From positions 32,001 through 96,000 of IMG/VR virus record IMGVR_UViG_3300031867_000003: a DNA stretch of 64,000 nt, one strand, 5' to 3'. Shown piece by piece: positions 10,228 to 41,119 of the stretch. The notes beneath the pieces were generated by a model. That model made no database searches and had not been told where the DNA came from. It worked only from the letters and a program-made list of their open reading frames with translations. Position 1 is the first letter of the stretch. Every line of letters starts with the position of its first letter. Source of the DNA: a virus. Lineage: Duplodnaviria > Caudoviricetes. A program made the translations under genes and the position numbers.

Positions 10228-10299
10228 GAAAACACTAGAAAATAAATTATTAAAAAATGCAATGAAAATTGAATTTTATTGGAAGATATTAGGCTTCCT

Positions 10300-10490
10300 A
10301 CCGGGCGAGGTATTATCCCACGCCCAATAATCACGGATATTCCGCGAGGGATATTTCGTGCGGGTTATTTTGGCCCCGAAAGCTGAGGGAGTATATTTTG
10401 ATGATGGGTTATACACCGTTACGATGTATTCCGGAGAAATATATTACCACTCGGCAAAACCGATGTAAATTTTATACAGTGCCGAATGTG
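10300..10490 (+). ncRNA. putative tracrRNA of the Cas12f-like system
   Basis: 5' hairpin GGGCG...CGCCC. Anti-repeat ACCGATGTAAATTTTATACA (10459-10478) pairs with the repeat, using G:U pairs and one bulge. Confidence 0.7.
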
Positions 10491-10496
10491 AATTTG

Positions 10497-11059: not shown

Positions 11060-11061
11060 AA

Positions 11062-12408
11062 ATGATTACGAGAAAAATTCAGTTATATCCTATTGGAGAT
11101 GAAAAAGAAGTTGATAGAGTATACACATATTTAAGAGATAGCATTAAATCGCAGAATAAAGCGATGAATCAATATATGTCTAATCTGTATGTGGAAGAAT
11201 TATTAAATGCGTCCAAAGAAGATCGAAAAGAATTAAATGCATTATATACTAGAATTCCGACCAGTAAAAAAGGAAGCGCTTATAGTCTGGATTTGGAATT
11301 CCAAAAAGGACAGATGCTTGGTTATATAACCAGAGCAATAGATTCAGATTTTAAAAAATCACTAAAAGACGGGTTGATGTATGGGAAAGTATCTCTCCCG
11401 GTTTACTCAAATAGCAATCCGTTATTAGTTCATGTGAATTATTGCAATTTGCGTAGTAAGGTTCAAAAACAAACAGGCACTAACACTGGTATTTACCACA
11501 ACTACGAATCTCATCAGGAGTTTTTATCTCATTTGTATAAAACAGATATAGAAATATATCTTCAGTTCTGCAATAATATTTTGTTTAAATTAAATCTCGG
11601 TGATAGCCTCAGAAAATCTCGCGAAATCCGTTCAGTAATACAGAAAATATTTGAGGAAGAATATATTATCCACGGTTCGCAGATCCAGTTAAAGAAGAGG
11701 AAAACTGGCAAGGGCGAAGATATATTCTTACTGCTATCAATCGAAACTCCGGTTGTTAAGCATGAACTTGATGAAAATATTGTTGTCGGCGTAGATCTCG
11801 GCGTGGCAAATCCGGCAGTATGTGCAGTAAACATTAACGGCAATTATAAATTCCTGGGCGACGGAGAAACATTCCTTCATTATAAACAAAAATCCAAAGC
11901 CGAAAGACGCAGACTTCAGAGAGCTCTAAAGTATACAAATGGCGGTCACGGAAGAACCAAAAAACTGAAAGCACTCGATAGATTGAAAGAACGTGAGAGC
12001 AACTTTACTACAACGTATTCTCATAAGCTCTCAAAAGATGTTGTAGATTTTGCCATTGAACAGCATGCCAAATACATCAACCTCGAGGATTTAACCGGAA
12101 TAGATGACAAAGATGGTAAAAAACTTCTCGATTGTTGGAAATACTACGAACTTCAGCAGTTTATTATCTACAAAGCTACTCATCATGGCATAGTAGTCCG
12201 CTTTATTAATCCAAAATATACATCTCAGACTTGTTCCAAGTGCGGAAATCATGCCGAGGGGCAGCGTGACGGTCATAGTTTTACATGTAAAGATTGTGGC
12301 GAAGAGCTTGATGCCGATCTTAATGCAGCCAGAAACATTGCTATGTCAACAAATTTTGTTGAAAGAGGCAAGAAGAAAAAGAAAAAGAATAAAACCGATA
12401 ATAAATAA
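11062..12408 (+). CDS. cas12f: Cas12f-like (TnpB-derived, type V-F/V-U3-like) RNA-guided nuclease
   Basis: 448 aa. RuvC GVDLG, NLEDL and DADLNAARNIA. Zn ribbon CSKC/CKDC and GGHGRTKKL motif. Directly follows the array. Confidence 0.82.
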   Translation: MITRKIQLYPIGDEKEVDRVYTYLRDSIKSQNKAMNQYMSNLYVEELLNASKEDRKELNALYTRIPTSKKGSAYSLDLEFQKGQMLGYITRAIDSDFKKSLKDGLMYGKVSLPVYSNSNPLLVHVNYCNLRSKVQKQTGTNTGIYHNYESHQEFLSHLYKTDIEIYLQFCNNILFKLNLGDSLRKSREIRSVIQKIFEEEYIIHGSQIQLKKRKTGKGEDIFLLLSIETPVVKHELDENIVVGVDLGVANPAVCAVNINGNYKFLGDGETFLHYKQKSKAERRRLQRALKYTNGGHGRTKKLKALDRLKERESNFTTTYSHKLSKDVVDFAIEQHAKYINLEDLTGIDDKDGKKLLDCWKYYELQQFIIYKATHHGIVVRFINPKYTSQTCSKCGNHAEGQRDGHSFTCKDCGEELDADLNAARNIAMSTNFVERGKKKKKKNKTDNK

Positions 12409-12570
12409 TATTTTGCCTGAGACGGCATTGTTACTACCGAAGAAATGAATTCGGTAGCTAATAACTGACCAATTAAGCGGTGGGTTGGGGTTAGCTCCGA
12501 AAGGTGATTATGTCCAAGGATGAAGTAACTACCGCATCTACTAAGAGATAAAATATAATAGTTGGAAGGA

Positions 12571-13668
12571 GTGATTACTATAGATATTGATGTTAGTGAA
12601 TTACGGGTGGGATAGGTTTATAGTTATAAAGAATTGTGTGAACTGATAGGTGCTGAGTATAAAAAAGGCGCTGGCAAAACTTATCAACTAGAAAAATTTG
12701 GAGAAACAGGATTTCAGAGATTTTTTAATTTTGAAAAAGTAGGACGAGGAAAGTATGAGGTTCTTGAAATCTATGATGAACCGCTCCCTATAGAAGATGA
12801 AAGACATAAAGGTAATAACAAAGTATACAAACATTACATAGAGCTGGTATTAATGAATTATCTGGCGAAGAAAGGTACTCACGTTGAAACATTTACTATG
12901 AGAGATCTGTGGCAGCTCCTCGGAATGATAAATGAAAAATATGGGAAAGTAGATAACGATAAACTACTTTCTATGAATAGCTGCATTACGTCATATGAAA
13001 TTAATAATTTCTATTTTAGGAGTGATAAAAAGTTACGTCAAATATTATTATCCGCACTTAAAAATTTGCGCAATAGAAGATTAATAGACTGGCAATTACA
13101 AACAGTTGTCTGTAAAGAGAAGAACGGCAAGGAAGAATGGTTTGTAGCTAATGATAGCGAAATAGAATTAATTCTTGATGCAGAATACGAGATACTTCAT
13201 CGAATGGGATTTACAAAAATGTTTCAGGTGATTTCTTCTTTTAAAACAAAAGAATTTTATACAGCCGTCGAGAATCTTTTATATAAGAAGAAAAAATGGA
13301 AAAATTATTATAAGCGATATAAAATTATATTCAACGCCAACAACATAAAAGAATCCGTTCCCGACGTCGAAGCAGAGCTAAAAAGAGCATTATTAAATGC
13401 AAAAATCATATTATACTTAAATAACGAAGCAGAAACGGCATATAATTCAAAACTAAAAGAATACAATGGCAATCTGGCGCATGAAGTTTACGTTCAAGGA
13501 AATATTATTGAAGCACTACATGCTTTCAAATATCCCGATGATTATGTAGTTGCTCAGAGGATGTTGTCAGATGAACTTATTAATACGCATGATTACTCGC
13601 CCGAAATTATTAATGAGTTACTTAATACAGAAGCGTCAGATAAAGAATTGGATATGATGTTTCCTTGA
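12571..13668 (+). CDS. putative DNA-binding or replication initiator protein with in-frame TAG (12613-12615)
   Basis: ELRVG(TAG)VYSYKELCELIG continues into the 344-aa ORF. Start uncertain (GTG 12571 or ATA 12580). Followed by an AT-rich inverted repeat. Confidence 0.55.
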
Positions 13669-13680
13669 TGGAGAATTTTT

Positions 13681-13745
13681 TTACACAATTTATAATTTCA
13701 TACTATATAATTCCTTAGTATAGTATACCGTTTTAAATTGTGTAA
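13681..13745. repeat. AT-rich inverted repeat, possible origin element
   Basis: TTACACAATTTA...TAAATTGTGTAA enclosing ATACTATA/TATAGTAT. A second hairpin lies at 13817-13846. Confidence 0.55.
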
Positions 13746-13892
13746 TCGGAATTATATTACTGTCTACCTCAACAAAGCATTGTTTCGGTAGAAAAAATCT
13801 TAATTTATTAACTAGCCCGCATCGGCAAATACTTTTGTCGGTGCGGAAAATATAAACTAATAACCATATATATTCCCAAAGGAGGACACCTT

Positions 13893-19695: not shown

Positions 19696-19724
19696 TTGAC
19701 AATGAATACACTATGTGCTACCAT
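19696..19724 (+). promoter_or_regulatory. sigma-A type promoter flanked by AATTATTAAA boxes
   Basis: TTGACA-17bp-TACCAT with an extended TG. Confidence 0.65.
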
Positions 19725-20730
19725 AAGACAGTAGTTAATTATTAAATATATGAGGGACATATATATGAAAATAAAATACAGAAAAAATGATGTAGTCCAG
19801 TTTACCGAAGACCACAAGTGGATGGCTTCGCTAGGGATTATATCTGACATTCGAGAACAAGATGGCGATATTTCCTACATGATTGGAGTACCAATTCCGC
19901 AGCAGGGTATTGCATATATTTGGTCTAGCGAACCTGATATTGAGTTTGAGTATGTCGGCAGAGCAATACTTGGAGAAGCGGAGGATTAATTATGCTTATA
20001 TGCAATAATACGGATCAAATGTTATATGTTTCCGGTCACCAAATAAAACCTCGAGAGTTCGATGAGGTCATTGAAAGTTGTTTTGATATGATTAGTATTC
20101 ATTGTGATTTAGGCTCCTCACAAATTATATGTGAGTACGGTCAGCGAGAAATCAAAAACTTCGGAAATATTATTGCTGAAGAATCAGATGGTCTAGACCC
20201 TGATAATAAGAAAATTATTATAGTTAATAGCAAATAAAACAAAATTTTGATTGGATATATAATATGATTGATAAAAATAATTCTGTTCCCAATACGCGAG
20301 AGCTGCTTCATATTCATAATGAGCAGAAAGAAGAATGTCGAAAAGAACATGAGAAGAAGCGCCTAAGAAATTATATTCTTAGCGATACAATGTATGTTGA
20401 TTCAATAAAACCGGAGTGCCTTCGCCAGGAAATAGTTGAAGAGATTGGTAGTGGCAAGGAAGTCATATTTAGTATATATCATGGCGGCAGAAAATTTTTA
20501 GAATATCCAATTCAGCTAATTGATAAGGAGGCATGATTATGTTTAACGAAAAAGACGCAATGCCAGAAATGGACGTTGAAGAATATAAAGAAGCGTTGCT
20601 ACGGTCAATTAATGTGGAATTGGGATTGGAATACGGGGAGAACGATAATTATCACGTTGGACTTAGGAACGGATTAAGAATTTGCAGGGCTTTTATAGAT
20701 GGGAAAACTCCGGATTATGAATAATGAGTT

Positions 20731-20900
20731 TCTGCGGTGGCGGAATAGACATCCACAATCGGGGTAACCGGGAGGATGGTAAAGAAGTGGCGGAACGCCC
20801 TTCATTTGTAGACGCTTATACATAAGGCGCATACTCAGAACGACCAATGACGAGTTGTTATACAATGGCGCCATATGTGGTGCAAATCCACATCCGCAGA
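20731..20900 (+). ncRNA. expanded tRNA-like RNA 1
   Basis: Acceptor stem TCTGCGG/CCGCAGA. Leu-type D-arm halves GGCGGAATAG...TAGACGC separated by an insert. T-arm ATGTGG-TGCAAAT-CCACAT. Confidence 0.6.
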
Positions 20901-21868
20901 ATTGGAGAATATATGAAGTTAGGAATTTTAATTATTACTATTGTGATATTAACGGTTGTAATTTTAATATATGTCGCTAACGCTTCGAGCTATTATGAAT
21001 GCATAAGCGACGAACAAACAATAACATTTGATGAATTTATTAAACTTGAAGCGGTTGCACCGGAAAAATGGATTATATCTGATTGGGTATATTACTGTGT
21101 ATATTATGGCAGTACAAGGATTTTTATGAAGACTTATTTTGATGAATTGAGATTGGCTCATGCGGCGAAAAAACTTGATAAACTAGAACTTCAATCAGCT
21201 ATGGATAAAAAACGAGCAGAGTTGATAAAATCCTGGCAATCAGACATCGATAATTATCGCAGCGAATATATGGACGCTATCAAGACATACTTCAATGAGG
21301 GTAAGATACTATGAAACGGTATAAAGTCTGGGTTAGGCTTGAAGAAGAATATGATGATATAGTCGCAAACTCCAAAGAAGAAGCATTCATAGTTGCTAGT
21401 GATGCAGCAATTAGCGGTGGCAGTTGGTATTATTCAGTAGAAGAAATTGAGGATTACGATGAAGATAGTGAGAAATAATCATGCTAAGCCATATATTATA
21501 TACCTTCGGGACGAACAAATCACGGAGAATCCTCATTATAATTGTGATGCTGTAAGTATAAGATGGGATGATGGAGGAATGTCATGTAGCACTTTACAAA
21601 CCCTGCATCCGATTACTAGCGAGCAAGCAAATGCAATAAGGAGTGATAATCGTGACTAAAAACATATCTTATAAACAAGTTATATGTGATATCTGCGGTA
21701 AAGAAGAGAGAATCGATCAATCAAACGATTTACCTCCTAAATGGGGAGAATTAAAATGTGGATGGCATTTTAAATATGATTGCTGCCCGGAATGTATACA
21801 AAATCTCAAGACGACAATAGAGGAGATAAAAAAGAATAACACTCGTCCCAAAATAGTAATAACAAAGG

Positions 21869-22180
21869 ATGGATGTATACGTGTTGAAGATTAAAGAAGC
21901 TGAGTTATATCAAGAAATCGAATTATTCGACGACGATAAAAAAATAGGTGAAGCCGAGGTTGATATTAATAACAAAATGTTATCCAGACTAAGTATTTTT
22001 CCGCCGTATCAAAATCGCGGCTACGGGCAGCAAGTAGTTAAGATGTTGTGTGAAAAGTATGGATGTAATAATCTATGGGTTAATGCCGATAATGATATGG
22101 CAATTCATGTTTATGAAAAATGTGGATTCAAAATGGTAAAGCCCACAATGTATATGATGGAGTTAAATACCGATGACTAA
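21869..22180 (+). CDS. GNAT-family acetyltransferase
   Basis: YQNRGYG and N..AIHVYEKCGF motifs. Confidence 0.85.
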   Translation: MDVYVLKIKEAELYQEIELFDDDKKIGEAEVDINNKMLSRLSIFPPYQNRGYGQQVVKMLCEKYGCNNLWVNADNDMAIHVYEKCGFKMVKPTMYMMELNTDD

Positions 22181-22806
22181 TTTTGATAGAATTCGCCAGA
22201 TGACGGAGGAAGAATTTGCCGATTGGCTCGAGGATTTTGCCGAAGCATATGTGGAATTTTGGCTGCTAGGCACATGTAAGAGTGTTAGAGAAGACGACAA
22301 AAGAATTCAGTTGGGTATGTTAAAATCAGAATATATTGGAGATAAGATGTTTGAATTCTGAGAAGGAGAAAATAATGGTTAAAGTATTTACAACAAATAG
22401 CAATGGTAAAATTGAATTTACCAAAGATGAACTTGAGAAGCTACTCAACGAAGTATGGCGAGATGGATATGATTCTAATAAATCGCTTTGGTGGCCATCG
22501 TCGCCGACTACTCCTGTGGGTAGACTTAGCCCAGGCGAAGAATCGATGCAGCTTACGTGCTGAATCGGTGGTGATGCGTAATGAATAACTATAGTGATGA
22601 AGAAATAAAATCAATACTTGTATGTCTTAAAACTCTTGCGCAAATGTCTACGGCACTCGCCAGACCTGTTTGTAGTCAATGCGAACTTTATGATTATAAT
22701 GAGATGTCCGATGAAGGATATTGCGCAGCTAAGGATTACGAACCGATTAAACTATATCGAAAACATCGCCCTGATTGGTGCCCGAGATTAAGGGGGGTAA
22801 TGACTG

Positions 22807-23346
22807 ATGGAAGAAACCACGAAGTTGATACAAAAACTGCGGAATAGAGAACATATTAGTAGGGAAGAAGTTGGTCTTACGGCTAATAATGAAGGATATT
22901 ATCCGAGATTGGAGAGTAAAATCATGGAATTAAAATGTTGCCCATTTTGTGGTAGTACTGTTGAATTAAAGAAGGAGCCTATCTGTGGATATGGCGGATG
23001 TTATTCATATTCGATCCGATGTGATAACTGTGGATGTGAACTGGATTATGAGAAAAATGATACTGTATATCGCTCGGACGAAGAAGCGATTAATAATGTC
23101 ATTCCCGTATGGAATAAGAGGGCATCAGCCCCTATAGAAGAAGCACAAGAGATCAATGAAATAATCAATCAAGCTTTTCTCAATGCTTGTAAATATCTTC
23201 AACGTAATCCACCGGCAGAACTAGAGGATTATTCCATAGAGGAACTTAATGCACTTGCAGGAGCCGGAAGTTATGAGGATGGTTATAAACAGTGGGCGAA
23301 TTACTTTATTAATAACGCAATTAAGAATTCGAAGCATGAGGACTGA
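22807..23346 (+). CDS. Lar-like (restriction alleviation) Zn-finger protein; may start at 22924
   Basis: MELKCCPFCG...IRCDNCG...WNKRA. Confidence 0.65.
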   Translation: MEETTKLIQKLRNREHISREEVGLTANNEGYYPRLESKIMELKCCPFCGSTVELKKEPICGYGGCYSYSIRCDNCGCELDYEKNDTVYRSDEEAINNVIPVWNKRASAPIEEAQEINEIINQAFLNACKYLQRNPPAELEDYSIEELNALAGAGSYEDGYKQWANYFINNAIKNSKHED

Positions 23347-24027
23347 TATGCGAATAATAGATGCAAATACAGATTACTATGATTACCTTCAGAATATATA
23401 CCGAGATAATTCTTTGGTGTTTGATCGGAGAGATTCATTTGTACTAACTAAGAAACTTCTTTGTGAGAGTTTAAAAGTTAATAGCTGGCAATCTACTGAT
23501 TATAGCAATAAAAATTATCTATTACTTCAAATTTGTAATTCCTTTTGGTTATTTGGTGTAGATATAATCAAATTCGATGGATATCGCGCAACTGATTATA
23601 ATATAAAATTGCTAAGATCATGGAAAAACTACGATAAGACCAGAAAGCTGATTAGTTTAGACGTTATATACTTTGGATTTATTCCCGGATATTATAAACT
23701 TAAAGATTCGGAGAAAATGCTTGATTCACAAATTCAGGCAATCGATACTAATAACTATCGAGTTTGGAAGAGTATAAATAGATTTTTTATTTATCCTGGT
23801 GATGATCTGAGCAGAAAAATAGAGAAACATATTCCACTACTGAAAGCATGTGGGATTGCTGAATGGGTTGATCCGCTTGATGTGTATCTAGCATTCGAGG
23901 AATATTTTTCTTTAGAAAAAAGTTCTTCCGAGAGGAGAGAACCAATTGGTAATACTGATATTGATAAAATTAAAAGCCATGGGTTTGATGTTAAAACATC
24001 TTTTAGAAGGAAGAAAGGGGTTGTTTT

Positions 24028-24426
24028 ATGAGAACCATTTTACTGTACGCCATGGTATTCCTCCATATTGTAGATGACTATTATCTTCAAGGGATTCTGG
24101 CGCAAATGAAGCAGAAGTCCTGGTGGGAGAAAAATGCACCAGATCCGCTTTATAAAAACGATTACAAGGTTGCGTTAATTGAACATACTTTCAGTTGGAC
24201 GTTTATGATTATGCTGCCAATAACTGTAATGATGGTGATTAACAATAATATATTGATAATTCCATGGAGTATAGCATTTGTTGTTAACTGGATTATCCAT
24301 GGATGGGTAGATCACTTAAAAGCTAATGTCCATAATATAAGTCTTGTGGTTGATTAAATAATTCATATCTGTTAGATTATTGGGACATGGTGCGTAATGA
24401 CAGAGTTAATGGGGGTTGTCGGATGA
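24028..24426 (+). pseudogene. DUF3307-like membrane protein with TAA at a Gln-like position
   Basis: HIVDDYYLQG...H...D.LKAN...VD(TAA)IIHIC(TAG)IIGTW. The reading frame continues to TGA at 24426. Confidence 0.55.
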
Positions 24427-25904
24427 GTGTAGTGGTTAAAGGTATAAAAATGCCACGGTCGTGTTCTGATTGCCAATTGAACCTTGAACAGATGGCATGT
24501 TCTGTCACGGGGACAAGATGGTGGAGCGACACAATGGTTCTAATGGATTTCGATTGTGACAATGAAAGGCTTTACGATTGTCAAATAGATGAACTTCCGG
24601 AGCATCATGGTAGATTAATTGATGCCGACAAAATGAAACAGTGGTTTTTCCGACCATATTCAAATGAGGAAAGTTATTCCAATATTGATATTGCAAGGAT
24701 TATAGATAGTCAAGCTACTATTGTTGAAGCAGAATGAAAGAGGTTATGGAAATGATTAAATTAAATATAGAAATGCCAGAAAGTTGGTTAGATTGTCCAT
24801 TTATGGAAGAAGATGCAGACGATAATACGCCATGGTGTTATTTTGAACCGTATGTTGACGGACGATGTACTGGATTGTTCCAGGGCAAATGCCCGATAAT
24901 TCGGGATGAAAATACAGAATGAAAGGGTTATTCTATGGGGGATAATATATGAGACTGATTGATGCTAACGAATTATTAGAACACGCGTGGAGAGATAAAC
25001 TCGACAGTAGAGAATTAATAGCAAACATGATTGAAAGCGCTCCAACGGTTTATAATCGAGAAAAATGTGGCGAGGCTAATATCATAATGGGGGATAGAAG
25101 TTACAGCGAGGGATGTGTATCTGACTTTGTTTCTATTCTTCTAGCGAATGGATATGAAGTAAATATTAAACGAAATTGTAATAAATTTAATATCGAGTAT
25201 TATAAACAACATGAGTCTATGTTTGAATTTTAATAAAAGGATTTCTTAATGAACTATAAAGAATTTGCAAAAACACTTTTTGATTCTGAAGGCCAAATGT
25301 TTCCAAATGGCACAGACGCGCAGACTTGTTTGAATATTTTGGCGGATCATTTCTTGGGAAAAGATTTGGTACTAAATTATCCTGGTCATATAACTCAATG
25401 GAATTCTGAAGTTACTCATGAAATTTTGAGAAAATATCCATCTGGAAAAATTAGAAGAATACACAAATAATAAATGGGGGGTTATTTAATGGATATAAAA
25501 AGAGTTAATCATATTGAATTACATTTTAATCATAAGGATAATTTGGAAACATTATTATTTATGAATAATGATTGTGAAATTGTTATTAGAAACCTAAAAC
25601 GAGACCATATTATAGTTGGCGGAGAAGCAGTAAACAATTACACTTATGATTTTATGAGCTTGTGGTTTAAGACCGATGACGATGATTATTATAATCATAA
25701 TTATGAATCGTTAAAAAAATTAAAAACCATTAAACTAGATGATCTTTGCTCGATAGTTATTAAATATACCGATGGTACGGAGATGATGGTGCATCCAACT
25801 GAAGATATTACATATATAGCCATGAACAATGAAAATGAATATTTACATGTGATGTATCAGAAATGAAACAGTACTTTGATAAATATTAAATATGGTAATA
25901 GAAT

Positions 25905-26468
25905 ATGGTAATAGATTTAGAAAACTGTAATAACAAGTATGGAATTATTTACACGGATCCGCCATGGCAACAATCAAAAGGCGGTAAAAAATCTGTAAGA
26001 CCAAATTCTAGTGGGGGGGAGTTATCGTACCCAACAATGAGTATAGAGGACATCTCTTCACTGCATGAAAATGTTTTTAATAAATTAACAGAGAAAAAGC
26101 ATGATGTCTTTATGTGGACAATTGACAAATATTTAATAGATACAGAACAGTTTATGAAAAAACTTGGGTACACAAGACATGCTAGGATTATATGGGATAA
26201 GATTACTGGTCAAGCTACAGCATTTACTGTCAGATTTACACACGAATATTTGTTATGGTTTTATAAAAAAGGGAATATCTTAATGCCAGCAGATAGTACT
26301 CGCGGAAAATATTCAGATGTAATAAGAGAACAAGTAAAACGGCATTCGCAAAAACCGCAATGTGCATATGAAATGCTAGAAGATATGTTTCCAGATACTA
26401 AGAAACTAGAATTATTTGCGAGAAACAAACGACCTGGCTGGGACTGCTGGGGCAATGAAGTAGCATAA
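25905..26468 (+). CDS. MT-A70 family adenine methyltransferase
   Basis: DPPW, HSQKP and LELFAR...GWDCWGNE motifs. In-frame G7 at 26013-26019. Confidence 0.9.
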   Translation: MVIDLENCNNKYGIIYTDPPWQQSKGGKKSVRPNSSGGELSYPTMSIEDISSLHENVFNKLTEKKHDVFMWTIDKYLIDTEQFMKKLGYTRHARIIWDKITGQATAFTVRFTHEYLLWFYKKGNILMPADSTRGKYSDVIREQVKRHSQKPQCAYEMLEDMFPDTKKLELFARNKRPGWDCWGNEVA

Positions 26469-28036
26469 AACGATTCTTTTATGGAGACGGCGATAATGAC
26501 AGAAGAAAAGGCTCTTGAAGCATTTAAAAATATATATAACGAAATAGATAAAGATAACCATCTGTTTGTTGGAACGATTAATCCAGAGATGATTATGATT
26601 GCTATTGAAGCATTGAAATATAAGATTAGCACAAGAATTATTACAGATAGTATAACGATAGAATGAGTTTTTTATATGGATGATAATAAAGAAAAAATAG
26701 TTGACGCTTTAAGCCAAGTGGCGGAGGAATATTTAGTTCCAGTCGAAGAAATTGCTGAGGCATTAAAAATAGTGAATAATAGGATGAAAGAATTTTTAGA
26801 TTCCGGTAAAAAACTTTCGGAAAAAGACTGGGAAAGAATGTTCAATAATTTATAAAAAGATTATTTAATTGGAGTAATAATATGGATTTTAAACTTGGAA
26901 ACATACCAATTCGTAATGCCAGAAATATAGAGTGGGAATCAAATGATGATGGCACTGGACAACTTTGGTTCAATGCCATGTTTGTAGACAAAGATGGCGA
27001 AGAACAAATTGTGAGATTCCATATATTTCGATTAAAGTTTGATGATCCGCTGATATCTATGGAATCTGTCAACAACAAGTTATATGAGGTTGAAGTACTA
27101 TGATTGGTAAGTGTTCAAATGTATGCAACAATAAAACATCCGAGGGTTATTGCAAAACGACAGGATGCATCAATCCTCGCTATCAGCAGTATTTATTTAC
27201 CGGGGTCGAAGACGGATGGATTAAGGTTGATAAAAAAACATGGGACGAATATCAGATGATGAAAAATCCTGATTATGGAGTTGGAAAATATAGTTGATAA
27301 AAAAATATTTGATGAGGTGTTAAATGCACTTGTATGAAATCGAGGCAGATTATAGACCGAAGAATCCAAACAAGCCTAAATATTATGTCTGGGCCGATAC
27401 AGTTAAAGAGGCAAAATTGGTTTTTAGCAACATAATCAGTTGGCTTACAATTTATAATGTCACTACGGTGGACGAAGAAGCTGCTTGCAAAATATGTAAT
27501 GAGCCAAATAAACATATAATCATATAAAAACAGTGGAGATAAATATAATGTCACGACATAAACGAAAAGGTCGAGCCATCGATCATTGCTGGAAATTTTG
27601 TAAATATAAAGGTGATATATCATTTTACGCCAAGTGTAGCTGTGGATTTCTATATCCTTGTTATAAAAATATTCCCCCTAATCCGATACATATTGTTCCG
27701 GCTCCTGAGAAGTTATTTAATTATTGCCCGCATTGCGGAGCGAGAAAAACTAGATATTATGAAGAAACAATTTATATAGATCGATATTTATTTGAGAATT
27801 GACGTTATTAGGAGGTATAATATGGATAACACACAAGAAGCATTAAACAGAGCCAAGACACTTCTTAAAGCTACCGGGAAATTACTTAAAAAACAAGAGG
27901 ATTCATATTATGTATTAAATATTTTAAAAGAAACTGTTTATTATGATGGGGCCGAATGTGACGGTTTATGTTTGTTGGATGATATTAGATATTGGCTTGA
28001 TGAATTTACAACTGATAATATAGATGAGGAAGATTT

Positions 28037-28489
28037 ATGACGTACAAAGAAGAAAAACGTGATTTATTCACTGTCGATGATAGCTATTACTTGGCACATT
28101 GCATCAGCGCGGATTTTAAACTTGGCGCGGGAATCGCAGTTGAATTTGATAAACGATTCAATTGTCGCAAGAGATTATTCGAAATGTATCCGTCATCAAG
28201 AGTTCCTTACTGGGATAAGCTCCAAGATAGATTCAAGGGATTATGTACTATTACGGATCCCGTCTATAATCTAATAACCAAGCGCAACTATTGGAATAAG
28301 CCGACATTAACAACTATGGAAAACGCGCTACTTTGGATGAAAGAAGATTGCGAAATTCGCAAGATTGATAAACTGGCAATGCCGAAGATTGGCTGCGGAT
28401 TAGATAAATTACACTGGGAAGATGTGTCTGCATTAATTAAAAAGGTATTCGATGACACTGATATAGAAATTTTGGTTTGCGTCCAGTGA
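28037..28489 (+). CDS. macrodomain ADP-ribose hydrolase (TARG1/DarG-like)
   Basis: AHCISADFKLGAGIA, NLITK and AMPKIGCGLDKL motifs. Confidence 0.88.
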   Translation: MTYKEEKRDLFTVDDSYYLAHCISADFKLGAGIAVEFDKRFNCRKRLFEMYPSSRVPYWDKLQDRFKGLCTITDPVYNLITKRNYWNKPTLTTMENALLWMKEDCEIRKIDKLAMPKIGCGLDKLHWEDVSALIKKVFDDTDIEILVCVQ

Positions 28490-31400
28490 TAGGAGTTTAT
28501 GATGGCTAAAGGAACAAGAGAATGCCCGGTTTGCTCCGAAGATTGTTCAGTACTATGATGATACGCTTTTTGATCTGAACGGTATTCATACCACAATTTA
28601 CCAGGATCTTGCCAAAGAGGTATTCGGCACTTTTGATGGAGTTTGCTATTGCACTGAAAAGGTTGAGGAGTAATGCACACTGTTTGGGCGGTTACCTATT
28701 TAGATGAATATGATCACTCGCAAATGCTGATATTTGATAATCCATTAGCAGCATATGCTTGCCGCCGTTACTTCTATAATATTTATAGGGGTAACGTGCA
28801 AGTTGATCAGCACGAAGTTTATGGTAGCTTTATGGCGGCTGGGAATGAGGACGAATAATGTGGAATCCAGAGACTGATGCTTGTGATTACTGCTATGAAT
28901 GTGAATATTTTTTACATGAGTACTGGAATTGTCAAGGCGAATTAGAACCTTGTTTGGAATTCATACCAAAGAAGGATTCTAAATATAAGAAAGTCGAGGT
29001 TGTTGTTACGAAGGAGAAATAAATGTTAAACGATTCATATTGGAAAGAACACAATGATGGCGAACGTGCTTATTTATATTCCATGGATGGTAGAACAATA
29101 GCTTTTATCCAGAGAAAAAATGATATATGGAGTTGTTCCATATACGAGGAGTTTATTAGTGAAGATTTTTATTGGAGGGGGATGGATTCAATTAAAGAAG
29201 TTGAATGGCAAGTAACTCTTTATATTAGTAATAAGTGTAATAAGATAGCTAATCAACTTCATAAAATTCGGGATCATCTTCCGAGTATTCATGATCTGGC
29301 TGAAAAAGCAGGAGTTATAAAATGATCTATTTAGCAATTGGGAATGTTGTTTTTATGTTGGGATATATAGTTGGTAAAATATGTGCTACATACGAATACA
29401 ATAAAACAAGTCTTTGACGGTGGTTAATATGGACAATATAAAATACGTTACAAAAGAAGAAGTTGATAAAAATAAATATGGGTATGCAGTATGCGAATGC
29501 ACGGTTTTTGGTCCAGACTATGGTATACAAGTACCAAGAAAAAAGTATAATGATTTTGTTAAATTTAAATGTCCAAGATGTGGTATGGAACTCGGATTAT
29601 TTGTAAGAGGTACTGATCCGAATTGTGATTATTTTAATGTATGTTAAATATTAGATTTTATGAGGAAGATCACGATGAGTTGGATGGATGAATTGTATTA
29701 TATAATTACCACGCCTGTAATTAAACAATTTGGTGTTAATGCTCTATTATCGAAGGATTTATGGCTTCAAGTGATTGAGTTAATGGCAGATGAGCTGACA
29801 ACAAAAAATTCTATATTGTTTGAAAAGTATAAGATTTGATGATGCAGAGTAACATTTACTTTGATTGGAGAAAAATATGAGCTATAACGAGAACGGTATT
29901 TGTAAATTCGCAATAGAACGAGAAGATAGTCATGGTTCGCAGCAACGTCATCCGCTGCAATTGGTGGCTTGAAGATTATAAACCGGAATTTTTGGAGTAT
30001 TTTGAGGAGATATGAGGAACATGGTTAAAGTATTTACAACAAACAGTGATGGCAAAATTGAATTTACCAAAGATGAGTTGGAAAAATTATTAAACGAAGT
30101 GTGGGAAGACGGACGTAGTTCTTGCTACTGGTGGTCATCGCAGACGATTACGAGTGATAAAATAACAACGCCACTTTACGTCAATAAAGGCGCTGAAATT
30201 ACTTGTATAGCAGGCGAATGAAATTAAGGGATAAGGATATGTGTGGGACAAAAGATAAACCGTGCTGTACTTGCTTTTATGGTGATGGCGGATGCCTTGC
30301 TTCTATGAGAGAGGATTTTTATATGTCTGCTACGGAAGAACAGGTACGGGAACGATTAGAAAATGGTTCGTATTCGGAATACCAGGATGTTATGAAGACG
30401 TATTTGAAAGCATTTGAAATAGCAGCTAAACAAACAATACCACCATTAGAAGATATGAGTCGGATGAACCAAATTTTAAGAGAGCGATTATATTGCTGTG
30501 TAGATAATTAATAAATGAAATTGAGGTTTCATAGGAGAGATTAGTAATGGCTGAATATATTAACAGTGATGTTAAAGTAGTCGGTATTGGCGATAATATA
30601 GAAATTGACATTCCAGAACCAATCGCATCAATAAACTTTGACGCACTTCATGCTGGTACATATGTGGTGGATGTCAAACAAGATGGGTCTTATTCGGCTG
30701 TTTTTGTTGGAACAATGTATGAAAACTAAGTTTTACTGGAGAAAAATGATGGAAAATAATATTAGAACAGTCAAACAACTATATGACGAGTGCGTTAAAA
30801 ATAATATAGAGAATTATGAAATTAGGTGTTTATTTAAATCCTGGGATAATGAAGGATATATCGGCGAGTTGGTGACGGCTCCATATCCTTATACACATAA
30901 CGATCAAGATAAATGCATTAATTTGTATTTTAATCAGACATATAAGATGTTGTAATAAAATTAAGTTTTGTTGGGGAGTAATATGGATATATATGAACTA
31001 ATAGATTACTACATTGATAAATATCTAGAAGAAAAGGAACATCAAACAGATGGATATACTCTTGCTGGGATGTTACAGGGATTATTATGGATTTGTCGCT
31101 TTGGTGGCGTAACAGATGAGAATCTTGGTGATGATAGATTAATAAAAATATCTGGCAAATGAAATAAACGATTGGAGGCACTATGACAAATTTTGAAAAA
31201 TATGTGAGCAGCTTAACACAGGATCGATTTATTAATTCGATGATATTGAATTGTGACGGCTGTCCTGTATATCCATGCTGTGAAGATGGAACTGAAGACA
31301 ATGGAATTGATTGCAAAGAAAGACTTCGTGATTGGTGTGAAGCTGAGAATTGAGGTACAGTCCAGTTATGAGAGAAACTAGAAGAATATGATTATTAAAC

Positions 31401-32398
31401 AACGAAAGGAGAGAGTTCACGATGAATAATCAAACAACCACTACCTTCGTGAACGAATATGATAAGTATGATTAATTTAGGAAATATTGTAATAACTGAA
31501 TTTACGAATGCGGAACTTTATAGAAACTTAGATACAGATAGCGACACGCTGTATTTTGAGGGTATAGCCGAAGTCGATGATTCTGACGAAAAACAAAAGA
31601 TGGTATTGGGTAGAATTCCAAATTTTGGTACAAAATCTCATTCCCCGATAAATAATTGTGATTTGCAGAGGCTACAAATAAAAAAAGAATATGAAAAGTC
31701 TATCGGCATACAGTACGATAATGAGGAACTTTTATATACTTTAGAGCAATTGAGCTCTGCTACACTAAACATAGACGAAATAAATAATAAAGAATTGCCA
31801 GATAATATTTCAATAATAAAGACTAAATATAATGTTATTGAGAAGAATGGGCTCCATAAGGTTCAAGGAGTATCGTGACTGCCAATGAAATTAGGAGAAC
31901 ATAAAATAGACCGTGTTGTTATATAACAATGATGATTATTATCCAGCCAATATAATTATTAAAAATAATGATACAAACAATAAGGAGCAAATATGGCAAT
32001 TAGATTAGGGGATCAAGTAATAGATGAAATATATCGTGTGCTAGTTGACGGTAAAGATATTATGACCGTTGATAACACACCAATTCACATAACCATCGAA
32101 GCAGAATGTTGCGATGTCACAGATGATAGCGGCAATATAATTAAAAAAAGATTTGTTTTGTCGAGATATGCTTTCTCCAATGAGCATGAGTATGTACAAA
32201 TCCTTGCGGGAGATGATAAACCTGCACATCAATTATGTATTACCGGAACTGGATGGAGAAGTAGACCGCATAAAAAGAAACGTATAGCAAAAAAATGGGA
32301 AAAAAGATACGGTATGTCCTACGGATTTTGCTCAGTAAACAGATTTGTGCGAGGAGATTTGGTGATAAGAACACTAGATTAATAAAATAAGTATTTTG

Positions 32399-32578
32399 TC
32401 TGCGGTGACAGAATAGGTATTGTTCGGAAACACCGATCATATAGTAGTCAGCATAACGACCATAGCCGGTGAGATGACAGGTGAAAAAAGTCGATAAAAA
32501 CACATTAACGGGTTATGCTTAGATAGTCTGAGGCTGCTTGTAAAGATGAACTGCAAGGTGCAAATCCTTGCCCGCAGA
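32399..32578 (+). ncRNA. expanded tRNA-like RNA 2
   Basis: Acceptor stem TCTGCGG/CCGCAGA. D-arm ACAG-AATAGGTA-TTGT. T-arm GCAAGG-TGCAAAT-CCTTGC. About 125 nt replace the anticodon/variable arm. Confidence 0.6.
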
Positions 32579-33611
32579 TGTGAGCAATTTCATTAAAAGG
32601 TTTCCCTTCCGCTCACCGACAAATGTAAGGAAAGACTTACCCGTATACTAATCAGTGTCTGAAGCGGAGTGTAAAATGGCACAGATTATAAATAAACTTG
32701 TTTGTAAAGGAATTAATAATATGCTATTTACAGCACACAAAGATGCAGCCGTTGATTATGACGGCGCTGAAATTAAAGAGTTCAATAAATACTTCGATTC
32801 TCCATTTGTCCCATTTCCCGGTGGAGGACTTAATAGATATTGTTATGTAATTTATCAAGGACTATTTGGCAAATATAAAATCAGACAGTGCGAAGTCGTC
32901 TCGGTTTGGTTCACTAATATCTGGGGATGGCGCATGGATAACGGCTGGACGTTTAGTAGCGATGAACTTGATAAAACCGTGTTCAGATATGACAAAGAAA
33001 ATCTTAACAAAGCTATTGAGATTTGTGAAAAGAAAAACAGGATGAGGAAAGTTAAGGTTAAATACCTTTAAATGAGTGTTGAGGTAATGAAAAGGATCGG
33101 AAGATATGATTTACTTCCACCCTGTGAGCAACAATGAAATCTGAGTTTCATCGGAAAAGGAGTAAAAAATGGATAGATTTGAAAGAATTGCAGATATTCA
33201 GACAATTGATAGAAAAACAGCAAAACAGCTTATTGAAACCCTTGAAAACACTGGACTTTTTGTATGCCTCGGCGGACTTTATGGCCAGGACGAATGCAGC
33301 TTCATGGTGATGAAAAAATGTACCCCCGATGAAAATAAAATTTGATTGGAGAAAGGTTAATCGATTATGACAAATCTTGTATTTAGAACTCGACTATCAA
33401 ATATTATTACTCAAGCATATCAAATAAGTCGTGATACGGTTGAAACAATTGAAGGAGCCCCGATTATCAAAGATGGGAAATGCGTAGGATATATTAACAA
33501 AGTAGATATTGGAAATGATGAGTGCTTCGGAATTTTATTTGTACACGAATTGATGCCTTGGTTTACTAAAAATGCTGATACGATTACATCACTTTCCTGG
33601 GAGGATTGAAT

Positions 33612-34718
33612 ATGAAAGTATATAAGCAGAAACAGTATCTTGTATTCGATCTCGATGATGGAAAAACAGTAAAATATGATTTTGCTAAAAAGGTTGCCAT
33701 CGGCAAAAGCGGAAAGGTCGTTAAAGATTTAAGGACGCAGTTATCCGGAAAAAGCTTGGACGAGGTTTTTAATAGTTGTGAGGATAAAAACTATGCAAAA
33801 TTCTTGCGGTGGGTACGTAATAATAGCAGTTGTTATATTACCAATATTGGAACTGTTTTGTCTCATGTCCCGGAATATTCTCGATTTGAGCAGTTTTTCT
33901 CTGCGGGAGTTGATGTATTATCAAATGCATTGTCATATGATATAAAACATATCCCTAAAGGGTTAATAAAAATATGTCGTGAATATGATATACCTCTCCG
34001 TGATACTCTCGTAAAGTCATATAAAGAAATACCAGATGCTTACAATATTGTATTTTCAATGAGTTTTGTCTCATTGGATAAACAAGACATTCGATACTTA
34101 TTTACTGATACATATTATCAATCGGGTGGTTATAAAAGTACATATAATAGAGCTATAAAAGACTATGGATATACTGCAAAAGGATTACTGAAATATTTAG
34201 ATTATTGCAAGACATATGAGGCTTTTAATAGTATAGTTAGCGCTTTAGGAACATTAATAGACTATGCATATATGATGAAAAAAATATCCCCCAAATTTGA
34301 TAAATATCCACGTCATTTGCTAACTACTCATCAAATCGCTGCAAGAAATTATAACAGATTAAAACATCAGTTTGATGAAATTGCTTTTAAGAAAAGAATT
34401 AATCCCGATATGGAGAAAACCTTTGGCGATTATAAATTCTATTATCCTCGTTCCACTCAAGACATTAAGGATGAAGCAGTAATGCAGAATAACTGTGTAG
34501 CCTCATATATACAGCGCGTCCTTGATGGGGAGTGCGATATTTTATTCCTCAGATATAAAGAATTACCGGATAAATCGTTGGTAACTATTGAGGTAAGAAA
34601 TAATCATATTGTCCAGGCTCGTCAGAAGTTTAATGATCCTGTCACAGAATTGCAGCAAGATGCTATCAATAAGTGGAACGAATGGTATGGCAAAAAGATG
34701 ATTGGTATGGCTTCATAA
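33612..34718 (+). CDS. PcfJ-domain protein
   Basis: EAVMQNNCVASY, ILFLR, TIEV and QARQKFN motifs. Confidence 0.8.
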   Translation: MKVYKQKQYLVFDLDDGKTVKYDFAKKVAIGKSGKVVKDLRTQLSGKSLDEVFNSCEDKNYAKFLRWVRNNSSCYITNIGTVLSHVPEYSRFEQFFSAGVDVLSNALSYDIKHIPKGLIKICREYDIPLRDTLVKSYKEIPDAYNIVFSMSFVSLDKQDIRYLFTDTYYQSGGYKSTYNRAIKDYGYTAKGLLKYLDYCKTYEAFNSIVSALGTLIDYAYMMKKISPKFDKYPRHLLTTHQIAARNYNRLKHQFDEIAFKKRINPDMEKTFGDYKFYYPRSTQDIKDEAVMQNNCVASYIQRVLDGECDILFLRYKELPDKSLVTIEVRNNHIVQARQKFNDPVTELQQDAINKWNEWYGKKMIGMAS

Positions 34719-36536
34719 GGAGATATAATATGAAGGTAGTTGAAAATATTGGTTATATACTTGATGGTTTTGGTAATATTATTGGGAGCGGCATGTTTAA
34801 TATGAAAGTTCCGAGTCTTAACGATATCGCATCTGGGAAAAAAGATAAAGTAGTATGTAGGTTTAATAGCGATAAAACATTTAGAGCTACGATAGATGTA
34901 GATAGCATCGATATAAGAAATATGAAAAGATTTATTCTTAAGGGGACAAATAACTGGCGTAAAATGCATGGTTTGCCGATGCAGCACTACAAAAGATATC
35001 CACATGAGAAAAAGTCGAGGAAAAAATAATGAAACATGAATTAGGATTTTGGTTCTGGTACTATATTGTAATGATAGCTAATGGTGTAACATCAATTCTT
35101 ATTGGCATAAAGTTGGCGAGACCCTCCAATATTGTTCTAGGAGCACTTTTAATTATTATTTATTCTTTTCTACTATGGGACTATAAAAACATGGATTAAT
35201 GGAGAAAACATATGGCTATTTTAAAAATCAGAAATGAATTTAATGATGATATAACATTAGATGTAATTGCCAAAGCCGAGCGAAGAGTGGCTAAAAAGAA
35301 AGAAGTTCTTGAGGATATACAGAATGAATATGAACTTCTTGAGAAGCAAGCTTTTGGCCTATATAAATCCATAATAGAATATTATATGTTGGATTGTGCT
35401 ACTATCGGCAAAGCCGCAAAATGGCTAGGTATGGTAGAGAAAAACAAAGATGCCAATGGTAACAAACTGGATAAACGCAAAAAACATGAAGAGAAGGATG
35501 CATTCATTTATATCCAGAATATTGTTAAAAGATTATTAGACCTAGAAGACTTCGAAATTACAAATATATTGGACTATAATTATAGTCAAGGTAAGAATAT
35601 AGAGTTTTCTTCGTATGGTCATAATTGGATATTGGAAGTTCCGTGGGTGTCTAATGTTACACTAAAATCGTATCAGTATACTGGTAAATATGTATTTATG
35701 TTGATGATATCACATAGAGATAGTGACTGGAGTTCGACTGTTGTGGGATCAACATTTGAAGAAAAAGAATTAAAAGATATCATGAAGAATGCCATTAAGA
35801 AATATTGCTCTGTGGATAATGGTGGTGATTGATATGATGAGCTGGGATGAATTCCGGGATGAAATGATGAAGTATGACGGTCACAACATTCGAGAAGAGA
35901 ATAAAAAGCTGATAGAACGATATCCGTTCTTGAAGCCACATAATTCTCATTATGATTACGGATGGACAAAACTGGATGAACTGCCGGAAGGATGGTATGC
36001 TGCTTTTGGGCTTCAAATGTGTGAGGATCTGCGCAATATTCTTATTGAGGGGGACTATCTTGATAAGTATGAAATCCTTGAAATTAAGGAGAAATGGGGT
36101 CGGCTAACCTGGTATGATTGTGGAGTACCGGATAGTATTAGTGTTAAGTATGATTATTGGATTGCTAGGTACGAAGATTTATCAGAGATGACTTGTATCC
36201 ATTGCGGTAAACAGGGCAAGATGGTAATCAAGGGTTATTGGCTCTATCCAATATGTAAGAAATGTTTTGAAGAAAAGAATAAGAATAAAGATTACGAGGA
36301 GTGGACGTCATGAGAAATCCCGATAGATTAGATGGATTTTATGAGGAGTTAAAGAGTATTCATAAGAAATACCTAAGTGACTGGCGATTTGGACAGCTAT
36401 GCTATAACTTCTTTGAGTGGCTAAATAATATTAAGGGGATAGATCCGTTCTTCCCAGAAGAAGATAAGATGTTGGAATACTTAAAAGAGTATATGTCTCC
36501 CCTAATAGGAAAATATAATTAATTATTAAATAGGTA

Positions 36537-36565
36537 TTGCAAGAATCAACAAAGTGTGCTATAGT
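36537..36565 (+). promoter_or_regulatory. sigma-A type promoter flanked by AATTATTAAA boxes
   Basis: TTGCAA-17bp-TATAGT with an extended TG. Confidence 0.6.
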
Positions 36566-37638
36566 ATATCTATACTAATTAATTATTAAAGAAAGAGGTA
36601 CAAAGTATGCCGAGGATGTATATTTGCCGGGATGTAATCGTGATAATGTGGCTTGGATACGAATGGATTATCCCGAGATTTTTCCAAAACAGGAGGAAGA
36701 GATGGTAACTAAAGTATTACTGATACTATTGATAATTTATAACGTGGGTTTTCTGGCAGCCTATGTGGGGATAAAACCGCCGATTAGCTTCTGGCGTGAT
36801 TTCTTTAGCGTTAGGAACATACTAGGCTGGATTTACGGACTTATTCTTGCCATATTGTCAACTCCTGCGGTAATTGTCTACTATGTGTTTTTTTGGATAC
36901 TAGTATTAATCACATGGTTAGATATCTTCGGAACTAAGAAACCACTCAGAATGGCGAAATTCTCGCTAGGCATTAATAAGGAAGATGAGAAATGAAATAT
37001 AAACCATATACACCGTTTTGTTATAAATTTCCGCTACGCTATAGGTTACTTCACCCGATTGAACGGCTTCATGACATTGGATTAAATATTAAATACGCAT
37101 ATCAGCGGATTAAGTATGGATGGTGTGAGAAAGATACATTTGATATTGATACATGGTTTCTGAATGTTGTTCCTCAGATGTTGAAGTATTTCCGAGATCA
37201 TCTTCACGGTCATCCGGTGTTTATGCTGGACAATGGGGAACTCGACCCAGACAGCGAACATCGTTGGAATATGATACTGGACGAAATGATTTCTTGCTTC
37301 GACGCTATTAACAATGACATTTTAAACATTTACAATTCTAATGATAAATACAAAGACCGGGCATTTGAGTTACTTTCCAAACATTTCTGGAATTTGTGGG
37401 ATTGAGGTAATTATATGATTAACGTAAAAGATTTTGAAGGGTGGACACCCGAAATTGAACTGGCTTCTGATAGCAATAAAAATGGACGAGTTACACTGAG
37501 TGCGTTGGTAGACCTAGATAATTCCAGCGTGGAATATGGCGTAGTTCATTATGTTAAGAACAAAAAGAAGTCGGTTCATTTTAATTATTTAGACACTGCT
37601 GTTAACTATTATAACAACAAACTTTGAGGGGAAGAATT

Positions 37639-39877: not shown

Positions 39878-41119
39878 ATGACAAATTATTGTTTTGTGTT
39901 GGATGCCGATGGAAAACCATTAAGTCCAACAAAAGAAGTAAAAGGTTGGTATATGATACGAAAAGGGAAGGCCAGCCTTGTATCAAAGTACCCAATGGTA
40001 ATACAACTGAATCGTAAGATACCTGATAATGAAATCTGTAAAGATGAAATTCGCTGCGGAATTGATGATGGTGGTCTTCATGTAGGGATTGCCCTAGTTC
40101 AAAAATGCCGGACTAAAAATAAGGTATTATTTAAAGGTACTGTAGAACAGCGCAACGATGTAAAACATCTTATGGACGTACGTAGAGGTTACCGTAGGTA
40201 TCATAGGTATCACAAAAGGCACCGCAAAGCAAGATATAATAATCGTAAATCTTCAAAACGAAAAGACAGAATTGCACCGAGTATACTGCAAAAACGCCAG
40301 GCGATTATACGAGTAATGCATTACTTAAATAAGTGGATTAATATAACTTCGTATTGGCTTGAAGATGTCGCTATAGACATACGTGCATTAACTGACGGAT
40401 ATAAACCTTATAGGTGGAAGTATCAGGAATCTAATCGTTTAGATGAAAATATACGAAAAGCAGTGATCTTGAGAGATGGCTGTAAATGTATGGAATGCGG
40501 TAGAACTGATACAAGATTAGAAGTACATCATATAAAGCCTAAAAGGCTTAATGGTTCTAATACAATGGACAATCTGATTACACTTTGTGAAGGATGCCAT
40601 CGGATAACTGAGGGGAAAGAAGAACAGTATATGCAACACTATTTTAACAGACTTAGTTCTTCAGATAATAAGTATCTCAATTACGCAAGCCATGTAATGA
40701 TAGGTAAAATGTGGTTGCAAGGACAGCTATCTGAACTTGGGGATCTTCATCTTACAACGGGCGGCGATACTGCGAATAAACGCATAGATTGGAATATAGA
40801 GAAGTCCCATTCTAATGATGCCATCTGCATTGTTGATTTAGAACCTGATACTACTGATATTAAAGAGTGGATTATTAAACCTATACGCAGACAAAGTAAA
40901 GCTAAGACTGACAATGTATTAGGAATTAAGCATAAAGATTTTGTAGAGTACACTTTCAAAAATGGTGAAACCCATAGAGGGTACGTAACAGCGTTATATC
41001 CAAAACAAAATGCTTTAAATTTCCAGAGTCCTACAAAACATTGCAAGAAAGTAAATGCAAGAAAATGTAGATTGCTATGGAAATTTTCGAAAATTTATTG
41101 GTTAGATAGTGTGTCTTAA
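39878..41119 (+). CDS. iscB: IscB (RRXRR + HNH) RNA-guided endonuclease, IS200/IS605 family
   Basis: PLSP motif, [26 protein letters not shown]...N...NLITLC, and HSNDA. Confidence 0.9.

Follow-up and report, generated by a model that had tools for sequence, protein, structure and literature searches.

The window analysed here is a stretch of 64,000 nucleotides (bases 32001-96000 of the 202,175-bp virus record IMGVR_UViG_3300031867_000003; Caudoviricetes, bovine rumen, ~37% GC) from a phage designated W. It contains a PARP-like gene, genes for a C5 methylase, Thg1, LigA and NrdD, and a CRISPR array adjoining a Cas12f/TnpB-like gene. The subject of this report is a short sequence, the linker, that recurs between the small genes of a hyperplastic array and occurs once in the block that precedes it. 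The first-pass annotation had read these sites as palindromes of the form ATRAAA-N6-TTTBAT and proposed that they delimit integron-like cassettes, with the operator of a dimeric regulator as the alternative. The linker is a lineage-specific, regionally restricted family of intercistronic sequences, and the genes of the array are gained, lost and permuted one by one among related phages, with breakpoints on the conserved blocks of the linker.

Five close relatives of W were identified in IMG/VR using a PcfJ-like protein and the 227-aa protein encoded at window 23348-24031 as queries: G001 (locus L001), G002 (locus L014), L015, L016 and L017. The same queries also recovered more distant relatives, and blastn of the region against GenBank phages in near and distant modes gave no match. 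In the focal region (window 19700-33700), 25 genes end in TGA, 24 in TAA and only one of 50 in TAG. If TAG is taken as a stop codon, 148 apparent TAG stops arise in the rest of the genome, and coding density increases from 0.81 to 0.89 once TAG is called as sense. Stop codon usage and coding density are in line with recoding of TAG, and all comparisons of junctions in the region with junctions elsewhere are based on gene calls with TAG as sense. The region encodes only one paralogous pair of proteins (window 22375-22563 and 30021-30221, 58% amino acid identity over 64 residues), both members of which are also present in G001; the repetition of the linker therefore does not derive from gene duplication, and tandem duplication of paralogues was ruled out as its source. 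The features are as follows, in window coordinates (SD, Shine-Dalgarno sequence).

10262-10279, + strand: pivot copy of the motif, with a 15-nt core AAAATTGAATTTTAT common to W, G001 and G002
19765-24357, + strand: flanking block, mostly colinear with G001 to ~22.8 kb; most junctions overlap, and one linker (20234) is present
20234-20251, + strand: linker ATAAAA-CAAAAT-TTTGAT; stop codon in left arm, then SD-like TGGAT; 26-nt gap
22807-23346, + strand: Lar-like anti-restriction gene, in the flanking block
23348-24031, + strand: anchor gene for the 227-aa protein, with five different upstream contexts
24358-33611, + strand: hyperplastic array of ~35 small + strand genes, mostly of 50-190 aa (evidence from blastn, the adjacency test and contigs of other runs)
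24919-24936, + strand: linker ATGAAA-GGGTTA-TTCTAT, then GGGGG; G001 has an extra 1.1 kb
25233-25250, + strand: linker ATAAAA-GGATTT-CTTAAT; start codon overlaps right arm, and G001 homology ends within
25863-25880, + strand: linker ATGAAA-CAGTAC-TTTGAT; its right side is fused to the left side of 24919 in L017
26465-26482, + strand: linker ATAAAA-CGATTC-TTTTAT, then GGAG
26658-26675, + strand: linker ATAGAA-TGAGTT-TTTTAT, directly abutting ATG
26852-26869, + strand: linker ATAAAA-AGATTA-TTTAAT, then TGGAG; an L015 block begins at its left edge
27296-27313, + strand: weaker linker GATAAA-AAAATA-TTTGAT, then GAGG
29644-29661, + strand: linker TTAAAT-ATTAGA-TTTTAT, then GAGG
29848-29865, + strand: weaker linker AGTAAC-ATTTAC-TTTGAT, then TGGAG; G001 homology begins at right arm
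30515-30532, + strand: linker ATGAAA-TTGAGG-TTTCAT, then AGGAG
30547-30729, + strand: gene for 60 aa, translocated in G001, where the homologues of window 23346 and 23348 lie on either side of it
30719-30736, + strand: linker ATGAAA-ACTAAG-TTTTAC, then TGGAG
30955-30972, + strand: linker ATAAAA-TTAAGT-TTTGTT, then GGGGAG
32382-32399, + strand: motif copy ATAAAA-TAAGTA-TTTTGT at the left edge of blocks common to G001 and L014; no SD follows
33134-33151, + strand: motif copy ATGAAA-TCTGAG-TTTCAT in a 97-nt gap, with an SD 8 nt downstream
33329-33346, + strand: linker ATGAAA-ATAAAA-TTTGAT, then TGGAG; TGA of the upstream gene in right arm

The linker and its distribution

When all junctions were printed, the recurrent unit proved to consist of a TAA or TGA stop codon, AA, approximately six variable nucleotides, TTT(G/T/A/C)AT, (T)GGAG, 7-9 nt and ATG. 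The gap from stop to start is often 26-27 nt and the whole linker spans 25-30 bases. All 13 main sites of the first-pass annotation read as it gave them. The weaker copies that it placed near 27297 and 29849 are present and fit better when shifted by one nucleotide (27296 and 29848), whereas those near 29317 and 29978 are poor matches. Its statement that the left arm supplies the upstream stop codon applies to the sites at 20234, 24919, 25863, 26465 and 26852, and not to those at 30515, 30719, 33134 and 33329.

The pattern ATRAAA-N6-TTTBAT, which is degenerate and was fitted after the fact, matches 13 times on both strands of the 64 kb, compared with 0.44 ± 0.78 times in dinucleotide shuffles; with one mismatch allowed, there are 41 matches where 12.4 are expected. 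In the whole genome, with the right arm relaxed to TTTNAT, 22 exact + strand matches were found versus 0-3 in Markov simulations; about 12 of the exact matches are of the junction type and fall into two clusters (window 20.2-33.4 kb and the ends of the record), the remainder being intragenic. As the first-pass annotation noted, the right arm runs into the SD: TTTNAY directly 5′ of it precedes 8/46 genes of the region versus 1/230 elsewhere (p=2.7e-6). When only junctions that combine a strong SD with a gap of 10-45 nt are counted, this arrangement is found in 7/13 in the region and 1/47 elsewhere (p=3e-5), and these region-versus-elsewhere counts rule out a generic effect of stop codons and SDs. 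The left arm lies on the stop codon at 10/46 junctions of the region versus 9/230 elsewhere, and a gap of 25-28 nt is found at 7/46 versus 5/230. An SD-anchored profile computed without any pattern contains only an A-rich tract 12-17 nt 5′ of the SD and a T-rich tract abutting it, while control junctions elsewhere in the genome have AAGGAG instead. About half of the genes of the array are without the motif.

The orientation and register of the sites are fixed relative to the stop codon and the SD. Only a minority are perfect palindromes (four of nine exact + strand matches also match on the − strand), and the arms are asymmetric: the stop codon dictates the R of the left arm, TTTGAT is the most frequent right arm, and for these two reasons the arms do not covary. 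The left arm reads TRA because TAG is almost never a stop codon in the region, and the palindromic appearance arises because TRA-AAA (a stop codon and a run of A) stands opposite TTT-AT (the run of U before the SD). The spacers (CAAAAT, GGGTTA, CGATTC and others) all differ between sites. Folding with RNA parameters gave energies of -0.1 to -6.7 kcal/mol and z-scores mostly between -1 and +1, and the hairpin between the arms is the best fold in approximately three of 11 linkers. No Rfam family matched anywhere in the window at the gathering threshold, and a hairpin or attC-like RNA fold was ruled out as no better than shuffles.

A second cluster of related junctions occupies both ends of the record (genome 198800-202175 and 600-1950) with the form TAATAAA-N6-7-TTTGAT-N2-3-AGGAG, and the record ends, as well as other places, also have junctions of another class, AATTATTAA(A)GGAG. 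A scan of IMG/VR for ATRAAA-N6-TTTGATTGGAG found at least 119 loci; the 80 that were listed have one match each, on unrelated contigs, which is about the level of chance.

Gene order and breakpoints in related phages

W and G001 are colinear at window 19.8-22.8 kb and 33.6-37.4 kb, and share 23.3-24.9 kb with one extra gene at 23342. In blastn comparisons with G001, window 24.9-33.6 kb breaks up into a mosaic of blocks of one gene each, and the same blocks appear in changed order in L014-L017; in L014, the blocks at 30237-30522, 28027-28441 and 27314-27523 are located upstream of the 23338 anchor. Further joints at the same places are present on contigs of four additional rumen runs, which belong to different studies. 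The cassettes that can be identified encode a Lar-like restriction-alleviation protein, an MT-A70 methylase and a macro/phosphatase-like protein. The proposal that small genes are shuffled as cassettes is upheld by relatives that differ in the order and combination of these genes, with the ends of the blocks at junctions.

Blocks begin at the left edge of the motif (-3 to 0 nt) at 24918, 26849, 30718, 32380 and 32382, and their ends coincide with its right edge (+17 to +19) at 24936/8, 26482 and 29661; others end in the spacer. At 33329, homology to G001 stops directly after GGAG, and the joints around the G001 homologue of the 60-aa gene at 30547 are at SD-like GGAG/GAGG. Where two junctions share the upstream gene but differ in the downstream one, homology extends 0-4 nt past the stop codon in 17/27 pairs. 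For pairs that share the downstream gene the distribution is bimodal, with homology ending 0-5 nt before ATG in 24/43 and 9-18 nt before it, at the 5′ boundary of the SD, in 19/43, and homology never spans the whole linker. The apparent crossovers are thus found at four places (past the stop codon, where spacer and right arm meet, where the SD starts, and at ATG), and unrelated junctions share only the four blocks TRAAA, TTTNAT, GGAG and ATG. Since homology ends at the stop codon, the SD edge and ATG, the apparent crossovers sit on these four conserved blocks.

Linker cores persist where the genes around them do not: 46 pairs of junctions are identical at 17/20 positions or more although the genes on both sides are unrelated. 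Several subtypes of core were distinguished (GAAAACTAAGTTTTA, AAACGATTCTTT, ATGAAAGGGTTATTTG, AAAATTAGATTTTAT, AATGAGTTTTTGAT and ATAAAATTTGATTGG), which occur in the same order in W, G001, L014 and L017 according to a reading of the junction lists by eye. The 15-nt core of the 30719 linker (GAAAACTAAGTTTTA) has the same sequence in W, G001 and L014 and a single base difference in L015 and L017, with unrelated genes on its flanks; the 26465 core (AAACGATTCTTT) precedes three unrelated gene families in relatives; the 29644 core (AAAATTAGATTT) is common to G001, L014 and L017 with different neighbouring genes; and the 24919 core recurs by other genes in G001, L014, L015 and L017. In G001 the 20234 linker is retained along with the gene on either side of it.

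Several indels are bounded by linker copies on both sides, and the shorter genome contains a hybrid linker in their place. At L017 6640, the left arm and spacer of the W 24919 linker are joined to the right side of the W 25863 linker, and three genes are absent; at L017 12680, the linker of G001 42890 is joined to that of G001 43642. One contig of another run joins 25869 to 24931, which fits either a circle or a permuted order. Two other repeats have differing flanks and so are not clean indels: two copies of AACGATT, as in the 26465 linker, flank five genes found only in G001, and ATGAAATTRAGG of the 30515 linker is repeated at 30218 so that the copies flank one gene of the window. The sequence ATGAAATT at 30515 is a real start codon in L014.

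The pivot copy at 10262 marks a larger replacement. On its right, W has the CRISPR array and Cas12f/TnpB-like gene (window 10262-13868), G002 has a different TnpB-like module (a 457-aa OrfB_IS605/TNB protein for which no matching CRISPR array was found), and G001 has neither; the corresponding coordinates are L029 2800-6232 and, in relative numbering, G001 23207-24030. Homology between W and G002 ends 2 nt past the right arm, which is the left boundary of the module. Short hairpins after the left boundary resemble the ends of IS200/IS605 elements. Because a TnpB-like module abuts a motif copy, insertion of the IS200/IS605 type 3′ of TTGAT/TTTAT was considered for all cassettes; it was set aside, since no hairpin stands out at the ends of the small cassettes in the folds of the linkers.

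Two further observations concern this part of the window. A segment of 113 bp (window 22790-22902) that is not in G001 is flanked by direct repeats CCGAGATT and alters the 5′ end of the Lar-like gene. After the motif copy at 32382 there is a stretch of 293 nt without a called + strand gene (window 32400-32675), conserved in G001 and L014, the start of which is overlapped by an 87-aa − strand orf; it gave no sign of a structured RNA (z = -0.21), and no Rfam family matched at E≤1 in 32300-32750.

Explanations for the linker

The explanation favoured here, with moderate confidence, is that the linkers are stereotyped intercistronic sequences whose conserved blocks serve as microhomology for recombination. 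Each linker would provide an accessory cassette (some of which are anti-restriction genes) with an unstructured, context-independent site for initiation or reinitiation of translation, and initiation regions would be expected to fold as weakly as the linkers do. Recombination between non-allelic junctions would resolve at the short blocks TRAAA, TTTNAT, GGAG or ATG, since many junctions have them in common, through a homologous, microhomology-mediated or copy-choice process. Whole orfs, with or without their own SD, would be swapped, inserted, deleted and permuted, and selection would retain only the joints that leave genes intact. Recombination might be assisted by a Sak4-like AAA_24 protein with a RecA core (~306 aa, genome 20613-21059), the sole recombinase-like annealing candidate found; RecT, ERF, RecA and a serine recombinase were not found in the genome. 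Either the linker promotes recombination or it merely marks the exchangeable units.

Several results weigh against this explanation. Breakpoints of gene gain and loss do fall on the motif, as the first-pass annotation would have it, but they fall equally on other junctions: gene adjacency is disrupted in one or more relatives at 13/14 motif junctions and 30/42 others (p=0.15), and among junctions with gaps of at least 10 nt at 12/13 with the motif and 20/21 without it, so that junctions lacking the motif are shuffled as often as those possessing it. The correlation of mosaic ends with motif density across the genome is weak (rho 0.36, or 0.29 minus the focal bins), and other mosaic parts of the genome contain few copies. 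With non-motif junctions equally shuffled and copies scarce elsewhere, the motif is not needed for recombination and may only ride along. The precision of the breakpoints is limited by divergence of 10-15%, many of the gene pairs are not independent events, and the gene calls come from a simple caller made for this analysis. Finally, more distant relatives possess the anchor gene without the motif, which argues against a deeply conserved function and indicates that the linker family is young and lineage-specific.

The same equal mobility of non-motif junctions, weak genome-wide correlation and motif-free distant relatives would be expected if the linkers were a by-product, that is, if random illegitimate recombination were filtered for intact genes and the linkers reflected nothing but shared ancestry and translation signals; many breakpoints at a plain SD or ATG without any motif also fit. 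This is possible, although we consider it unlikely, because it does not readily account for the indels that are bounded by two linkers and have a hybrid one in the shorter genome, for identical 15-nt cores between unrelated genes in five genomes, or for breakpoints that pile up on the conserved blocks instead of being spread evenly over the 26-nt gap.

Control at the level of RNA is less probable still. The runs of A and U beside the SD would in that case be read by a phage repressor or endoribonuclease, in the manner of T4 RegA or RegB, co-regulating the cassettes. Such an analogy would suit a motif with register and orientation fixed relative to the SD, with GGAG immediately next to it in an unstructured region, and confined to particular gene arrays; it is harder to reconcile with a degenerate motif that holds little information beyond its runs of A and T and is missing from about half of the genes of the array and from distant relatives.

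The integron-like system of the first-pass annotation would have one of the tyrosine recombinases of the phage capture, excise and reorder cassettes at 18-bp inverted-repeat sites. The genome does encode four Phage_integrase family proteins (genome 5548-6498, 81544-82746, 99005-99997 and 144435-145439, the second being window 49544-50746), inverted arms of 6 bp do surround 6 bp, the content and order of genes do change as cassettes would, some apparent crossovers are at spacer edges (25243 and 26470), and the CRISPR-Cas12f module abuts a motif copy. However, the four recombinases are generic and Xer-like by their best matches. Against the integron integrase model TIGR02249 (cut-off 265 bits), one scores 77.8 bits in two split stretches and another 28.8 bits, and two are unmatched; none is adjacent to the array, the nearest being 16 kb away. 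Classical core sites usually have inverted arms of 9-13 bp and an overlap of 6-8 bp that is identical in the partners. The sites of W did not conform to the lox, FRT or dif type, having degenerate arms of 6 bp and an overlap that is not identical between sites, and because the spacers differ, classical strand exchange would be blocked. Crossovers at four or more positions, including ATG and the SD outside the site, the equal mobility of junctions without a site, the short asymmetric arms without covariation and the lack of an attC-like fold likewise speak against such a system. The proposal is therefore judged very improbable. A version in which an Xer-like enzyme tolerates differing spacers by exchange of a single strand and replicative resolution, with the CRISPR-Cas12f module as one of the cassettes and the scattered breakpoints as later decay, is just as improbable.

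Least probable of all is an operator or stoperator at which a dimeric phage regulator would bind DNA between genes. An intergenic near-palindrome of 18 bp speaks for it, and the mycobacteriophage stoperators, which sit at gene ends, offer a precedent; against it, the sites lack two-fold symmetry (position 3 versus 4′, R versus G) and arm covariation, are seldom perfect palindromes, keep a single orientation and register relative to the stop codon and SD, have low information content, and differ from the true palindrome (TAATTAATTA) that flanks promoters. One such promoter (window 36520-36625) is sigma-70-like, with TTGCAA, 17 nt and TGcTATAGT, and has the palindromic TAATTAATTATTAAA on either side; the same unit is found at window 19696-19764, L014 10690-10775 and, in relative numbering, G001 41030-41119. 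It is probably an operator-promoter-operator unit that starts the early operons. The promoter palindrome also occurs just before the SD at larger gaps in W, G001, L014, L015 and L016.

Comparison with known systems and biological meaning

The closest analogues of the linkers are the PeSLs (promoter-early stem-loops) of T4-like phages, short repeated intergenic motifs concentrated in hyperplastic regions, which extend from the upstream stop codon through an AT-rich stretch to the SD and start of the next ORFan; indels and replacements of close relatives map to them, and homologous recombination between copies has been proposed (PMC2839356, PMC4122927). The PeSLs, which are far longer than the linkers, include both a strong sigma-70 promoter and a GC stem-loop that serves as terminator (PMC2839356, PMC4122927). 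The linkers resemble PeSLs in being a repeated intergenic motif, enriched in a hyperplastic region, to which the indels and replacements of relatives map. They differ in that the gap is only ~26 nt, with no stable fold and no promoter or terminator signal above shuffles, and they would constitute a purely translational link from stop codon to SD inside operons. From 19 to 37.5 kb there are 84 promoter-like sites compared with 90.7 ± 9.8 in shuffled sequence, and six terminator-like sites compared with 7.5 expected, none of them at linkers; a promoter cannot lie within a linker because a gap of 26 nt cannot hold a pair of -35 and -10 elements. True PeSLs, with a promoter or terminator in the linker, were therefore ruled out.

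The array is like an integron in that promoterless cassettes all point the same way, have imperfect inverted repeats between them and vary in content among relatives. An integron attC site measures 57-141 bp, is defined by a folded bottom strand with extrahelical bases, and has a GTTRRRY core that is cut at a fixed position by an adjacent IntI. The sites of W measure 18 bp, and the attC length, the fold, the GTTRRRY core, the fixed position of the cut and the adjacent IntI were all not found here.

Two other comparisons are with boundary sequences and start-associated sequences. For lambdoid phages and mycobacteriophages, the Hendrix model places mosaic joints at gene boundaries and proposes short conserved intergenic sequences as crossover points, and Rad52-like or Sak4 proteins of phages perform relaxed recombination. 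W is similar in having joints at gene boundaries and a candidate phage annealing protein (AAA_24), and dissimilar in having a family of sequences with constant spacing at a third to half of the junctions of one array, the cores of which stay in place as the genes to either side are exchanged. Start-associated sequences (SAS) of Cluster K mycobacteriophages, reportedly described by Pope et al. in 2011, contain an SD and lie immediately upstream of a subset of genes. The linkers likewise are conserved short SD-bearing sequences before a subset of genes in one phage lineage, with a different sequence; SAS are not known to be tied to the upstream stop codon or to gene shuffling.

Accessory regions are where the anti-defence and host-takeover genes of phages turn over fastest, and the movement of single genes in such regions is poorly documented beyond T4-like phages. 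In this lineage of rumen jumbo phages, permutation gene by gene is seen in at least six genomes and several independent metagenomes. If the linkers are the points of crossover, translation signals alone would suffice for a plug-and-play cassette array, which would need no promoter, terminator or dedicated recombinase. The cassettes that the linker marks as exchangeable include a Lar-like anti-restriction gene, an MT-A70 methylase, a macro-like protein and, at the pivot copy, the CRISPR-Cas12f/TnpB module, so the linker could guide the mining of counter-defence genes in this lineage.

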